DNA of 64,000 nt from Escherichia coli (GCF_044324785.1 NZ_CP172127.1), one strand, 5' to 3'. Counted from the stretch's first letter, positions 4,750 to 53,328 are shown. Translations and numbers: made by a program. Notes: generated by a model from the letters alone, not told the origin.

Positions 4750-6885
4750 TTATTCGATAAGGCTTTCTGAAGGGGTGATCAGTTGTGGGTTCAGGCAGCT
4801 TTCATAATAGGCCTGAATCTTCATCATGCGAGTACGATGACGCTGGTAACGCCGCCAGGCCTGTACGCCATTATAAATGGCGCTACCCAGCATCGTCAGT
4901 AGCAGCAGCGTGGTGCTGAGATAGCGCCACAGGCCGGAACGATCCGGGATCGGATGAAGGCCAATATGCTGCGTACCATTGGCGTCAGTGAAGATTTTTG
5001 TGACGATACCCTCGGCGTTAAACGGCGTATGCATCAGCATTTGTGCCAGTTTCTGGAAAGCGTTCCACTGTTCTTGCGGCGGGTAGTCGTAAAGTGATGC
5101 CGAAGGCCAGGGCTGATCAACAAAATCGCTGCCTTCGTCGCTGACAATCAGGAATCCACCGGGGGCGGGACTGTTTAGTGATTGTGCCGCTCGCGCCGTT
5201 TCATGCGTGATAAACGGCGCGGTGGAGGTTGCCACCAGGTTATCCAGTGATTCCGCACTCACCGGGCGTAATAACACATTCACGCCATCGAGTTTCCCAG
5301 CGTTGGCGCGTTTTACCAGCGCGTCCCAGTCTTTACTGTTGCCGAGATTGACCAGCGCATTTTTCAGTCGCACACAGTCATCTTTGGCAGAACATAGATC
5401 CGCTGTCTTCAGTACTATGTCGCCAAAATCATCAAGCAATACCATGCCGGATTTTTGAATTGCTGAACGTAATGAGGCGCTGACGCGAGATTCATCTTCC
5501 GGTTTAGGGTGCAGCTGGCGATTAACTGCTTCGGTCAATGCCGTCGCTTTGTTGACCAGTTCAGATTCTGGTAATGGCAATGAGCGGGCGTCATTCCAGA
5601 TGATCTGCGAGCAGTCAAACGGTAAAAAAGGTGAGTTGGTTTTCGCGCTCCAGGTACCGGAAGTGCGAATATTACACATTCCCGTACCGCTAATACGCAA
5701 TGTATCGCCAACCCGCACGCCAGCGTCAGCCAGTTGTTTCACGCTGGTGGCTTCAATGGTCTGCGCGCCTTTCATCCACGAGAGGGTGAATTTCAGCGGC
5801 ATATCCAGCGGGATCCAGAATAACAGCATAAACAGCACCAGTAGCGAGCCCGCAGCGATAATCGTACTGCGCAGCCAGTGCTGTAACGGAAAGTTTTTTA
5901 CTTCATCATGGAGCGAAAGATATCGCCCCTGACGCACTACGTGGCGGTCGAGATAGATATCGATATCGGTTTGTTGACCGAGATCCTGAGCAATGTATGG
6001 CTGCCAGTGTGCGGGGTAGACCAGGTCGATAATACCGAGTGAAATATTGTTGATCTGTTCCTGATCGTTTTCGCCAAACAATCCCCAACGACGGGGTGTA
6101 CCGCGCAGACAATGAATTTCCCGCAGGGAGGATTTTGCCGGGGGCGCGAATAGCCCCCACAGACCTGCGCCCAGCAGCAGTAACGCGCCGCCTGCCAGCC
6201 ACGGAACAAATACATCCGGGGTAATCAGGCAGAAAAAGAACATCAGGAATGAGGCGACAATCAGCAACGCTTCACGCAGCCCGCGCGGACGACTTAGCGC
6301 ATACTCTTCGTGCGTTTCTTTGCGAATATTGAGTAGCTCGATTTGCTCACTCTCTTCCCCGCGAATCGACGCCTGTGTTGACGGAACAGGTTGCAAGGCA
6401 TAGCCGCGAGTTTCCTGCATGTACTCCTGCAGCGTATGACCGTTGAGTGAAATAACCAGCGGCAGCGAATCGGTATGAATCAGTTCAACGGTATTCTCAT
6501 CGTTGATGTACTGTTCCCAGAAGGGGGGCAGGTGGACTTCTACCGAATCGAGGTAGTAACGCCATTTATTCGGATCGTCGGTAGAGATGCCGTAACGCGT
6601 GATAGCGTGTGTCAGCATCATGACGTTGTTGCTTTCGGCATTCAGCGCCAGAGAGATCGGTGCCGCGCTGGCTCCCGTTGGGCCAGGCACCTGTAATACC
6701 TGCGTCAGGCTCTCAAGATAATTTTCAACGGCGCTACGTTCTTCAGGTGTGAGTTTACGCGTTTGCGCATCCGCGAAGGCGTTGGTCCAGGGCAGCTGAC
6801 GCCGTCTGGATCGCACTTTTATCAGCCATCCCGCAAGTAGTGAGCAGGCCAGCAAAGCAGCTAAAAAAATCACAATGGTGCTCAT
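4750..6885 (-). CDS. igaA: IgaA/YrfF inner-membrane regulator of the Rcs phosphorelay
   Basis: ORF track 711 aa with N-terminal and internal transmembrane segments; conserved position. Confidence 0.9.
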   Translation of the reverse strand: MSTIVIFLAALLACSLLAGWLIKVRSRRRQLPWTNAFADAQTRKLTPEERSAVENYLESLTQVLQVPGPTGASAAPISLALNAESNNVMMLTHAITRYGISTDDPNKWRYYLDSVEVHLPPFWEQYINDENTVELIHTDSLPLVISLNGHTLQEYMQETRGYALQPVPSTQASIRGEESEQIELLNIRKETHEEYALSRPRGLREALLIVASFLMFFFCLITPDVFVPWLAGGALLLLGAGLWGLFAPPAKSSLREIHCLRGTPRRWGLFGENDQEQINNISLGIIDLVYPAHWQPYIAQDLGQQTDIDIYLDRHVVRQGRYLSLHDEVKNFPLQHWLRSTIIAAGSLLVLFMLLFWIPLDMPLKFTLSWMKGAQTIEATSVKQLADAGVRVGDTLRISGTGMCNIRTSGTWSAKTNSPFLPFDCSQIIWNDARSLPLPESELVNKATALTEAVNRQLHPKPEDESRVSASLRSAIQKSGMVLLDDFGDIVLKTADLCSAKDDCVRLKNALVNLGNSKDWDALVKRANAGKLDGVNVLLRPVSAESLDNLVATSTAPFITHETARAAQSLNSPAPGGFLIVSDEGSDFVDQPWPSASLYDYPPQEQWNAFQKLAQMLMHTPFNAEGIVTKIFTDANGTQHIGLHPIPDRSGLWRYLSTTLLLLTMLGSAIYNGVQAWRRYQRHRTRMMKIQAYYESCLNPQLITPSESLIE

Positions 6886-7765: not shown

Positions 7766-7846
7766 ATGCGTGAAGTTCGCCTGATGCACAATGTTTATCA
7801 GGCTTATGGGGTTTCTGCAATATATTGAGTTTTCACGATTTTGTTA

Positions 7847-7875
7847 GCCGGATAACGCGTTCACCCGTATCCGGC
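7847..7875. repeat. REP/PU-like palindromic unit between convergent nudE and mrcA
   Basis: gccggataacgcgttcacccgtatccggc: inverted arms GCCGGATA/TATCCGGC resembling the REP consensus. Confidence 0.6.
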
Positions 7876-28326: not shown

Positions 28327-28395
28327 AGCGCCGGACGGTCCCCGCAACGCGCCAGCATCGCCGGATGCGATGCTGGCGCATCTTATCCGGCCTAC
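28327..28395. repeat. REP/BIME element between convergent yhfS and frlR
   Basis: cgccggatgcgatgctggcgcatcttatccggcctac matches the canonical REP palindrome; partial second unit upstream. Confidence 0.75.
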
Positions 28396-44225: not shown

Positions 44226-44245
44226 GACGCATCAGGCAAAAGATG

Positions 44246-44276
44246 TCGGATGCGGCGTGAACGCTGTATCCGATGG
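44246..44276. repeat. degenerate REP-like palindrome between convergent argD and yhfK
   Basis: gtcggatgcggcgtgaacgctgtatccgat. Confidence 0.5.
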
Positions 44277-48744: not shown

Positions 48745-48963
48745 TTATTCGCGAAACTGACTGCGCGGCATGATATTGACCGTTTCGTGCAGCTCCGACC
48801 ATACCAGCACCGCTTCTCCGCACTGTAGCTGGCGTTTGACGTCGGCGACTTTCTGTTCAAGTGTACGCTCATGTTCACCATAATCGGTGCCTTCACGTAA
48901 CACAAAGCTTTCAATTAAATTTTCCAGCGTTTCGGGGGAGAGGTCTTGCCACGGAATCAACAT
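48745..48963 (-). CDS. yheU: small conserved protein (UPF0270-like)
   Basis: ORF track 72 aa; overlaps the yheT stop. Confidence 0.85.
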
Positions 48964-49979
48964 GATTTCGCCTCCAGATACGTTGTTAACCAGTCAGGAA
49001 TGCGTGACTCCAGCCACATTTGCGGATGAAGTAACGTACCGCCAATAAAGCCAACATGACCGCCATGTTCAGTCAGTTGATACTCCACCTGCGGGGGGAG
49101 ACTTTCCGGTTTCGGGATCACCTGATGATCCATAAACGGATCGTCTTTGGCGTGAATAATCAGCGTCGGTTTGGCGATCCGGTTCAGCATCGGCATGGCG
49201 CTACACTGACGATAATAGTCGATAGCGTCAGCGTAGCCGTGAATTCTGGCGGTGATGAGATCGTCAAATTCACGGATGCGACGTACCGATTTTAACTGCG
49301 CGAGATTAATCGGCAGTGTTCCGGGGTAGGCTGCCAGCTTGCGCGCGGCATTGGCTTTTAACAGGTTCAGCAAGTAACGCTGATAAACGCGGGAAAAGCC
49401 CTTTTCCATATGGTAACTACAGGCCTCCAGCATAAATGGCGCGGAGACAATTACCGCTGCATCAATCGGGAGGTTATTACCTTCTTTTGCCAGCAAACAG
49501 GCCAGCATATTACCGCCGAGCGAATAGCCGACGGCAGCCGTTGGCGCATGACCAAATTCGCGTTGCAGCCAGCGTAAAAACCAGCTGGCGTCTTCGGTTT
49601 CGCCCGAATGGTAAATGCGGTGCATACGGTTTGGTTCACCGCTGCATCCGCGAAAATGCATCACCACGCCCAGCCAGCCACGCTTTTGCGCCGCCTCAAC
49701 CAGACCGTGGGCGTAAGGGCTATTGAGACTGCCTTCGAGCCCGTGAAACACGACTAAACGCGGTTTATGCCGCGCCTGTGCAGGATCTTCACTCCACGCG
49801 AGATCGACAAAATCGCCGTCGGGCAACTCCAGTCGCTGCCAGTGCGGGGTGAATTTCACCTTGCGACGAAACAGACGCGGCAGCATGGTTTGTAGATGAC
49901 AATTGCTAAAGCCGCGCATGGGGGTGAATTCAGCACTGCTGCTGAATTCATTGGCATCGGTCGTCGTTATCTGCGCCAT
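48957..49979 (-). CDS. yheT: alpha/beta-fold hydrolase
   Basis: ORF track 340 aa; nucleophile-elbow GYSLGG; start codon overlaps the yheS stop by one nucleotide. Confidence 0.9.
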
Positions 49980-50074
49980 CAGTTGCTTTGGCCTTCCAGC
50001 AGCATCTGCTCAAGCTGCTCCTGGGCTTCCAGCCATGCCATTTCGCACTCTTCCAGGCCGGATTTGGCGCTGGC
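49979..50074 (-). pseudogene. yheS: displaced 3' remnant of yheS (last 30 codons plus stop), separated from the gene body by the IS
   Basis: Reverse-strand translation SAKSGLEECEMAWLEAQEQLEQMLLEGQSN* continues the YheS reading frame interrupted at 51507. Confidence 0.85.
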
Positions 50075-50982
<908 letters not shown>

Positions 50983-51438
50983 TCCAGGAGATGCTCCTGC
51001 ATGGCTTTCAGATATGCATTTTCTGCGCGAAGATAACGCAGCTCATTCTTCATCTCTTCCGGCGTCATGTTTGCCTCGTTTTCATGGGTATCATCAGAAC
51101 GGGTCATGCTTTTCTCCTTCCTGCGCCTGATAAAGGCCTCATTACCAGATTTGCGGTAGCCTTTTATCCAGTTTTTAACCGTGTTGTGGCTGGGAATGTT
51201 AAACCGGGCAGCTACCCGGGGTAGAGACTCAGAATGCCCGAGAGCATAAAGAACCACGCAAAGTTTATCTTCAGGAGAATAGCTACGCTTGTGTCTGCAA
51301 TCCAGTGCCCGAGGACCGTGAAGAAGAAAAAGATTAATCCAGTGTGAGAGGCTGGTGTGAGAAAGTTGAAAGAGTTTTGCCGTAGAAATGATGCCTGCAT
51401 GACCAGCCAGGTAATGATTTACAGCGGCAAGTTTTACT

Positions 51439-53328
51439 TCAAATGAATGTTTCATAAACTGCACCTTCAGATGTCAGATTATGTCCAACATTTGGGGTGC
51501 AGTTCATGGCTTGCTGTTGCAGGCATGCGGTCAGTTCTGCTTTACGGCTTTGATCGTACAGTTCGCTGTCGCCGAGTTTCTCTTCCGCCTGCGCCAGCTG
51601 TGCGTTCAGCTTCTCCATCTCTTTTTCCAGACGGGCAATCTCTTTACGCAGTGGCTGGGTTTGCGCACGCAGCTCCGCTTCCCGACGCTTCTGATCTTTA
51701 CGTGCCTGGGCGCTGTTCGCGTTCTCTTTTGGCGAGTCGTCGGCCTGGTTTTCCTGCTTTTGTACGTCGCTCAACCACTGTTGATAATCTTCCAGATCGC
51801 CGTCGAACGGTTCGACTTTACGATCGTGAACCAGGTAGAGATCGTCAGTGGTGGAACGCAGCAAATGACGGTCGTGCGAGACGACAACCAGCGCGCCTTC
51901 GAACTCGATTAATGCTTCGGTGAGAGCCTGACGCATGTCGAGGTCAAGGTGGTTGGTCGGTTCGTCGAGCAGCAGCAGATTCGGACGCTGCCAGACGATT
52001 AATGCCAGCACCAGGCGGGCTTTTTCCCCACCGGAAAAGCGGCGCGTTTCTTCCGTCACTTTATCGCCCTGGAAACCAAAGCCGCCGAGGTAGTCACGCA
52101 GTTTTTGTTCCAGTTCCTGCGGCGCTAAACGTGCCAGATGTTGAATAGGCGATTCGTCGGCGCGCAGGTATTCCAGTTGATGCTGGGCGAAGTAGCCGAG
52201 CTTGATCCCTTTCGCCAGATCAATTTCACCGCTGACTGGCGCAAGTTCGCCGGCTAACAGTTTGATTAATGTCGATTTACCCGCGCCGTTGCGGCCTAAC
52301 AGACCAATGCGCGAGCCGGGGACCAGATTCAGTTTAATCGAGTCGAGAATAATGCGATCACCATAGCCTGCGCTGACTTTTTCCATCTTTAATAACGGAT
52401 TAGGCAGGCTTTCCGGCGCGCGGAAGCTAAAACGAAACGGGTTGTCAACGTGCGCGGGGGCAATCAGCTCCATACGCTCGAGCATCTTAATGCGGCTCTG
52501 GGCCTGCTTCGCTTTGGTGGCTTTGGCACGGAAACGGTCGATATAACTTTGCAGATGCGCCACGCGTTCCTGCTGGCTTTCGTACATCGCTTGTTGCTGC
52601 GCCAGACGGGTGGCGCGCTGCACTTCAAACGAACTGTAGTTGCCGGTGTACTCGAACATGCTTTGTTGTTCGATATGAATAATTTTATCAACGATCGGAT
52701 CGAGGAAGTCGCGGTCGTGAGAGATCAGGATCAGCGTGCCCTGATAGCTCTTCAGCCATTTTTCCAGCCAGATAACGGCATCGAGATCGAGGTGGTTAGT
52801 CGGTTCGTCGAGCAGCAGCAAGTCTGAACGGCAAATCAGCGCCTGGGCAAGGTTAAGACGCATACGCCAGCCCCCGGAAAAATCACTTACCGGGCGCTCC
52901 AGTTGTTCATTGCTGAAACCGAGGCCGTGCAGCAGGCTGGCGGCGCGGGAGCGAATACTCCATGCGTCGATAGCATCCAGCTTGCCATGAATGGTCGCAA
53001 TGGCGTGCCCGTCGTTACGTTCGTTGGCGTCGTGTAGCTGCGCTTCCAGTTGACGATATTCACGGTCGCCGTCAATGACATATTCCAGCGCCGCTTGCGG
53101 TAACGCCGGCGTTTCCTGATTCACCCACGCCAGTTGCCAGCTTCCCGGAAAGGTGTAGCTGCCGCCGTCGGCGCTGATTTCATTTTTCAGCAATGCCAGC
53201 AGGGTAGATTTACCACAGCCGTTTTTACCCACCAGGCCGACTTTCTGCCCGGGGTTGATGGTGGCGGTGGCATTATCCAGCAGGACGCGCACGCCGCGAC
53301 GAATTTGTAACGAGGAGAAAACAATCAT
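51439..53328 (-). CDS. yheS: ABC-F ATPase YheS with the 3' end interrupted by the IS: 607 native residues fused to 22 IS-encoded residues
   Basis: ORF track 629 aa; two ABC cassettes (Walker A GKNGCGKST and GRNGAGKST, signature LSGG); the reading frame crosses the IS boundary at 51506/51507 and stops inside the IS. Confidence 0.9.
   Translation of the reverse strand: MIVFSSLQIRRGVRVLLDNATATINPGQKVGLVGKNGCGKSTLLALLKNEISADGGSYTFPGSWQLAWVNQETPALPQAALEYVIDGDREYRQLEAQLHDANERNDGHAIATIHGKLDAIDAWSIRSRAASLLHGLGFSNEQLERPVSDFSGGWRMRLNLAQALICRSDLLLLDEPTNHLDLDAVIWLEKWLKSYQGTLILISHDRDFLDPIVDKIIHIEQQSMFEYTGNYSSFEVQRATRLAQQQAMYESQQERVAHLQSYIDRFRAKATKAKQAQSRIKMLERMELIAPAHVDNPFRFSFRAPESLPNPLLKMEKVSAGYGDRIILDSIKLNLVPGSRIGLLGRNGAGKSTLIKLLAGELAPVSGEIDLAKGIKLGYFAQHQLEYLRADESPIQHLARLAPQELEQKLRDYLGGFGFQGDKVTEETRRFSGGEKARLVLALIVWQRPNLLLLDEPTNHLDLDMRQALTEALIEFEGALVVVSHDRHLLRSTTDDLYLVHDRKVEPFDGDLEDYQQWLSDVQKQENQADDSPKENANSAQARKDQKRREAELRAQTQPLRKEIARLEKEMEKLNAQLAQAEEKLGDSELYDQSRKAELTACLQQQAMNCTPNVGHNLTSEGAVYETFI

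Follow-up and report, generated by a model that had tools for sequence, protein, structure and literature searches.

What becomes of a conserved protein when an insertion sequence enters the 3′ end of its gene, and why the element settled at that site, are the questions raised by yheS in the DNA studied here. The window, a stretch of 64,000 nucleotides from Escherichia coli (GCF_044324785.1, NZ_CP172127.1), carries yheS, the gene of an ABC-F protein, on its minus strand. According to the original prediction, the yheS frame continued through both ABC cassettes into an insertion sequence, and whether this meant loss, alteration or a neutral change of YheS function was left open.

The chimeric yheS frame and the inserted element

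The ORF listing of the window contained a 629-aa ORF on the minus strand (53328..51439, stop codon TGA at 51441..51439), in which yheS was fused to IS sequence, in agreement with the predicted course of the frame. The predicted residue counts and both peptides were also right: the chimera kept 607 native residues, lost 30 and gained 22 encoded by the IS. The chimeric ORF ended in ...ACLQQQA followed by MNCTPNVGHNLTSEGAVYETFI, and its junction codon ATG was composed of a host-derived A and an IS-derived TG. The native part (51507..53328, minus strand) comprised both ABC cassettes, the PtIM linker, the first helix of the C-terminal tail and the first 15 residues of the second helix. Two Pfam ABC_tran matches and one match to ABC_tran_Xtn, the PtIM linker, were obtained for the chimera, with both cassettes intact. 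Against the NCBIfam YheS equivalog model NF007921, the chimera scored 1356.8 bits and thus passed the curated threshold (cut-off 917), with an alignment that covered only profile positions 1-609 of 638.

Taking out the 1432-bp element and one GCCA in silico yielded an unbroken 637-aa YheS ending in ...QQQASAKSGLEECEMAWLEAQEQLEQMLLEGQSN, and comparison with YheS as annotated in E. coli VCSW5 showed differences at 26 of 1914 nt and at four residues. Each of these four residues was located at a variable alignment column; thus the body of yheS gave no evidence of long-standing pseudogenization. The final 30 yheS codons persisted past the element (50070..49982), and with their stop codon TGA (49981..49979), which overlaps the yheT ATG at 49979, this displaced segment occupied 49979..50070 on the minus strand.

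A megablast comparison with 5,426 complete E. coli genomes identified the element as IS1397, a member of the IS3 family (IS150 group). The complete copy (50075..51506, minus strand) was 1432 bp long, lay in the same orientation as yheS and shared 99.1-99.7% full-length nucleotide identity with four RefSeq-annotated IS1397 copies. Its ends were formed by 25-nt inverted repeats (TGAAC...GTTCA, 84% complementary), with IRR at 50075..50099 and IRL at 51482..51506, both on the minus strand; the latter provides the codons with which the new YheS tail begins. A perfect 4-bp target-site duplication, GCCA, was found on both sides, and natural IS1397 copies have duplications of 3-4 bp. The left copy of GCCA (51507..51510, minus strand) comprises the GCC codon of Ala607 and the A that opens the junction codon, and the right copy lies at 50071..50074 on the same strand.

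The coding capacity of the element was complete. The orfA gene (50934..51455, minus strand, 173 aa) begins at the ATG at 51455, as RefSeq annotates it in other copies, and its protein was identical to that of the IS1397 copy in strain JNE12-007. The orfB open frame (50107..51042, minus strand, 311 codons), which contains the DDE transposase part, differed from the JNE12-007 copy by one residue. It lies in the -1 frame relative to orfA, and a slippery A7G within the orfA/orfB overlap, at IS coordinate 524 (approximately 50976-50983), predicts a programmed frameshift. The NCBIfam model transpos_IS3 matched the transposase with 299.8 bits. From these features, the IS1397 copy in yheS looks fully functional. 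The identity of the element and its unusual REP-like target are additions to what the original prediction had described.

Two further IS1397-bearing contigs were encountered in the searches. A metagenome contig of exactly 1432 bp with a coverage of 2368 ended with the IS1397 right end and appears to be the element assembled alone at very high coverage, which shows why IS1397 insertion sites usually vanish from short-read assemblies. An IS1397 end was also present in a 209-bp contig (coverage 0.89) recorded as Chryseobacterium mucoviscidosis, and the first 30 nt of its flank were identical to two metagenome contigs (L050 and L057); this contig is probably a contamination of that assembly by Escherichia-type DNA.

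The target site in yheS

Clément et al. in 1999 and Wilde et al. in 2001 and 2003 reportedly described IS1397 insertions in the palindromic units (PUs; REP/BIME) of E. coli, as cited in PMC1525189, where IS1397 is presented as a REP/PU-specific element that inserts in palindromic units. We compared the yheS site with 47 distinct natural IS1397 right flanks, which were gathered from metagenome contigs and from genomes of E. coli and of GTDB. Of these 47 flanks, 43 contained the arm core ATC[CA]GGC, and its distance from the IS end had a mode of 11 nt (24/47). The REP/PU-like half-site in yheS (50053..50074, minus strand), which adjoins IRR and resembles the PU centre plus the right arm, reads GCCAGCGCCAAATCCGGCCTGG, with the core at exactly 11 nt, as in the natural mode. 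A position weight matrix was then built from the 22 natural flanks that had the 11-nt spacing and were long enough to score. The yheS site scored 18.5 bits, within the natural range of 12.7-28.1, and ranked third among 125,086 positions when both strands of the window without the IS were scored, amid PU-like scorers. The other top matches, at 28374-28395 (plus strand) and at 28356-28377, 44241-44262 and 7843-7864 (minus strand), were all unoccupied and are probably genuine palindromic units, judging from their sequence.

The two sides of the yheS site did not behave alike. A left arm was present in all 15 natural sites for which both sides were available, whereas the left flank in yheS matched only five of the seven core positions at -18, a match with a chance estimate of approximately 6-8% that was not significant. 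In addition, the uninterrupted yheS site gave no palindrome-like DNA fold (z = -0.17). The site, which lies within coding sequence and is not palindromic, resembled a palindromic unit only in its centre and right arm, a departure that touches the target and not the identity of the element. A match to the centre and right arm, with neither a significant left arm nor a fold, indicates that IS1397 was in all appearance captured by a sequence mimic of the PU centre plus one arm, in exact register.

Compared with IS1397 in palindromic units, the event in yheS involved the same 1432-bp element, with the same 25-nt repeats, a 3-4 bp duplication and the orfA/orfB frameshift transposase, and it shared the IRR flank CGCC..ATCCGGCC at the usual offset of 11. 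It differed in that the target was non-palindromic, lay within conserved coding sequence and had no significant left arm. The targeting rule of IS1397 is therefore only partly explained, since the natural sites all have the left arm that yheS lacks at a significant level. Approximately 90% of the sampled natural IS1397 sites were true intergenic palindromic units and approximately 10% were not. Further intragenic insertions were also seen. IS1397 was found within long YD-repeat (rhs-type) open frames in two contigs (OLSC01005044.1 and QWCB01000830.1), and its removal from the former restored a 1317-codon frame. In a locus of Escherichia albertii NBRC 107761 (L006, 13134-14207), the right flank of the IS1397 copy reads CPACGG...LG.DVSEQLE, a motif that we take to be from an IS66-family transposase; here IS1397 seems to have inserted into another IS.

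Consequences for the YheS tail, the operon and the transposase start

The conservation of the replaced segment was surveyed by a search of 1.84 billion representative proteins, from which the 106 listed matches of 590-690 aa were used; 105 of them shared 34-55% identity with the restored YheS. The remaining one, P0001, would have counted as the only short-tailed relative and was left out of the tail analysis as a YheS/UvrA-like chimera. Over residues 1-355, this protein of 645 aa shares 93% identity with YheS, and beyond them it turns into another ABC ATPase, which we assume to be UvrA-like; probably it is a chimera created by assembly or gene calling. Among the 106 listed relatives, 105 extended past query position 620 and 90 past position 630, which showed that YheS orthologues do not stop near residue 607; a natural end there had been named as what would refute the original prediction. 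Within the replaced segment, E617 was conserved in 93/106, W620 in 95/106, L621 in 70/106 and E628 in 63/106 of these relatives. W620 was the sole column after the second cassette that was conserved in at least 90% of them.

The AlphaFold2 model of native YheS, computed with the alignment of its relatives, had a mean pLDDT of 94.8 and predicted a tail composed of a helix (539-585), a short turn and a second helix (593-636), which form an antiparallel two-helix hairpin. The junction after residue 607 takes away 29 of the 44 residues of the predicted helix 2 and leaves 15. In the model of the chimera, the helix was broken at 609-613, the confidence of the tail was approximately 58-60, and that of residues 551-580 in helix 1 was 83-89, compared with 93-96 in the native model. 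The chimera model retained a low-confidence helix for the junk tail; AlphaFold is not a predictor of stability. The profile comparison gave a similar picture: PF16326 (ABC_tran_CTD) matched native YheS at residues 560-622 (model positions 6-66 of 69, 30.0 bits), and the chimera at residues 560-605 (positions 6-49 of 69, 19.8 bits), short of a full-length match. With its PF16326 match and a short turn between two long predicted helices, the native tail resembles the C-terminal domain of Uup and the C-terminal hairpin of VmlR (PDB 6ha8, 30S subunit), which has been described previously (bioRxiv 10.1101/2023.06.15.543498). In contrast to that of VmlR, the YheS tail has never been seen in a structure. 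A Foldseek search with the native model returned only ABC-F proteins, in which the YheS tail was unmodelled.

Previous work offers a guide to what such a loss may mean. Chadani et al. (2024) reported that SecM-arrested ribosomes were no longer released by YheS in a purified system once its whole tail had been deleted, and they distinguished YheS from YbiT by a C-terminal domain that extends for 80 residues or more beyond the second cassette (PMC11162784). The chimera has approximately 80 native residues after residue 527, and its domain is cut (profile to 609/638, PF16326 to 49/69). The engineered tail-less YheS of that study and the natural allele have in common an altered C-terminal extension with intact ATPase cassettes and linker; the engineered protein lacks the whole extension of approximately 105 residues, whereas the natural allele lacks the last 30 and carries 22 unrelated residues instead. 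Since helix 2 retains just 15 of its 44 residues before a junk peptide that contains Pro/Gly, the modelled tail hairpin would no longer form properly. Because removal of the whole tail abolished the release of SecM arrest, the chimera, as far as sequence and model can tell, has most likely lost its activity in ribosome rescue or been strongly weakened in it; binding of ATP, and perhaps of the E site, would persist. As the chimera keeps helix 1 and one third of helix 2, partial activity might persist. Of the three outcomes that the original prediction had left side by side, the evidence from the W620 segment, helix 2 and the cut PF16326 domain now leans towards loss or strong weakening.

The insertion also affects the genes downstream. 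The stop codon of yheS and the start codon of yheT share the sequence TGATG, and in intact E. coli yheT overlaps yheU by 7 nt; the two overlaps were read at window positions 49977-49981 and at L001 4486 and 5502-5508. By this gene arrangement, yheS, yheT and yheU constitute a translationally coupled unit, which is now split by IS1397. The hydrolase gene yheT (48957..49979, minus strand), formerly coupled to yheS, now lies 1.4 kb further from the yheS body. No terminator-like site and no notable promoter were found on the minus strand within IS1397, and in the absence of such a terminator transcription may still read through. From the geometry of the locus, yheT and yheU would lose the stop/start coupling and their expression probably falls. 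A possible weak internal start (ATG 50041) opens a 20-codon remnant ORF before yheT, which could preserve some coupling. Neither the split of the coupled operon nor the overlap of the new stop with the transposase start was part of the original prediction.

Fold-back hairpins shield the transposase starts of IS10 and IS50 from outside transcription. In read-through RNA of the present locus, the IRL tip (51508-51496) is predicted to form a 13-bp stem with the AUG of orfA and its ribosome-binding region (51465-51453). The resulting hairpin (51453..51508, minus strand) had a folding energy of -34.4 kcal/mol (z = -4.8) and would form only in transcripts begun outside IS1397. We found no description of fold-back protection for IS1397 in the accessible literature. 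By analogy with IS10 and IS50, the IRL tip of IS1397 would likewise mask the transposase start; unlike in those elements, the hairpin here lies inside a translated ORF, namely that of the chimeric yheS, which would defeat the masking. The chimeric ORF stops 12 nt past the orfA AUG, and the other two frames entering the IS stop at IS positions 1-3 or 26-28; thus the yheS frame is the sole frame that lets ribosomes reach the transposase start. Ribosomes on the chimeric ORF would open the hairpin, and transposase synthesis from this copy may rise. The arrangement of these elements makes it plausible that transposase expression is coupled to yheS translation.

Distribution of the allele and its interpretation

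Full-length IS1397 was present in approximately 1,700 of the 5,426 complete E. coli genomes, and none of the 5,426 covered both junctions of the yheS insertion. In 5,425 of them, yheS was present and uninterrupted over the query. The one reference yheS site that was compared, that of VCSW5, was identical to the site in the window. The exact chimeric protein was absent from a collection of 15 billion proteins, and the 34-nt junction was absent from the GTDB representative genomes and the JGI metagenomes. The absence of the junction elsewhere and the few amino-acid changes in the yheS body point to a recent, strain-specific insertion that bears no mark of selection. Outside the insertion, the window was collinear with E. 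coli at 98.4-99.2% identity over segments of 10-25 kb; no complete RefSeq E. coli genome came closer than this, and the best-matching strain differed by segment. From these comparisons, the window would derive from a mosaic or from an E. coli-type lineage that complete genomes sample only sparsely. Scanned in full against Rfam, the window gave no match.

We consider that the observations are best accounted for by a single recent transposition, in which an intact IS1397 would have entered a look-alike of the PU centre and right arm at the 3′ end of yheS. In full, this reading holds that a recent IS1397 transposition into a REP/PU-like site of yheS probably inactivated or weakened YheS at nearly no cost, and we assign it a probability of about 0.7. 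The near-neutrality draws on a previous report in which a ΔyheS strain competed without any drop in fitness after a long stationary phase (bioRxiv 10.1101/2023.06.11.543863); given the absence of a defect in that assay, the allele is probably nearly neutral and was not selected. The same lack of a measured cost leaves selection uninformative on whether the chimera works, and it is thus also compatible with a silent exchange of tails, in which the tail would end in no more than a flexible appendage and the chimera would be essentially active, its cassettes, its Arm and the PtIM linker that extends to the peptidyl-transferase centre all being intact. In both cryo-EM studies of ribosome-bound YheS (PDB chains 9vvi and 9nlh), residues 527-637 were invisible, all resolved ribosome contacts lay within residues 1-526 and the tail was disordered, which fits an appendage, as does the retention of tail helix 1 and the turn in the chimera. 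The replaced segment is nevertheless the best conserved of the tail, being found in all but one of the listed relatives, and two thirds of the predicted helix 2 are gone. Considering also the in vitro effect of whole-tail deletion, we regard an essentially active chimera as rather unlikely.

Other readings concern the origin of the allele. A change favoured by selection could have acted through lower or altered activity of YheS, YheT or YheU, or through useful read-through into the IS or the downstream genes. In cells deficient in bipA, overexpressed YheS is toxic (PMC6723617), so a lower YheS level could be of benefit in certain genetic contexts, and the IS lies in the sense orientation without a terminator-like site. 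The choice of site is already explained by the target preference of IS1397 itself, and neither recurrence nor spread in a lineage was seen across the 5,426 genomes, the GTDB representatives and the JGI metagenomes; we therefore judge selection to be very improbable. Even less credible is an error of assembly, by which a repeated IS was misplaced into a gene that is really intact. IS copies are classic sources of mis-joins, but a mis-join would create no target-site duplication, and the GCCA duplication counts against it. The IS termini are exact at either junction and no host sequence was lost or gained, the site is a high-scoring IS1397 target and the window is otherwise collinear with E. coli. 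A further joint proposal goes beyond the transposition itself: the IS1397 transposase would read a half-site, consisting of the PU centre and the IRR-side arm, and not the palindrome or hairpin, and the copy, with its transposase coupled to yheS, would be unusually active. We view this combination as speculative and improbable on present evidence.

Under the preferred reading of a recent and near-neutral transposition, the event is an ordinary, strain-specific IS disruption by a known element and does not represent a new system. It is mildly unusual in two respects, namely that a REP-specific IS was placed at a mimic within coding sequence and that, of the YheS tail, the resulting allele is missing just the conserved tip. 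A REP-specific IS can thus be captured by a REP-like sequence in a core gene, which bears on both annotation and target choice. In addition, a natural allele without only the conserved tip (E617/W620) of the YheS tail provides a starting point for mapping what the release of arrested ribosomes needs.
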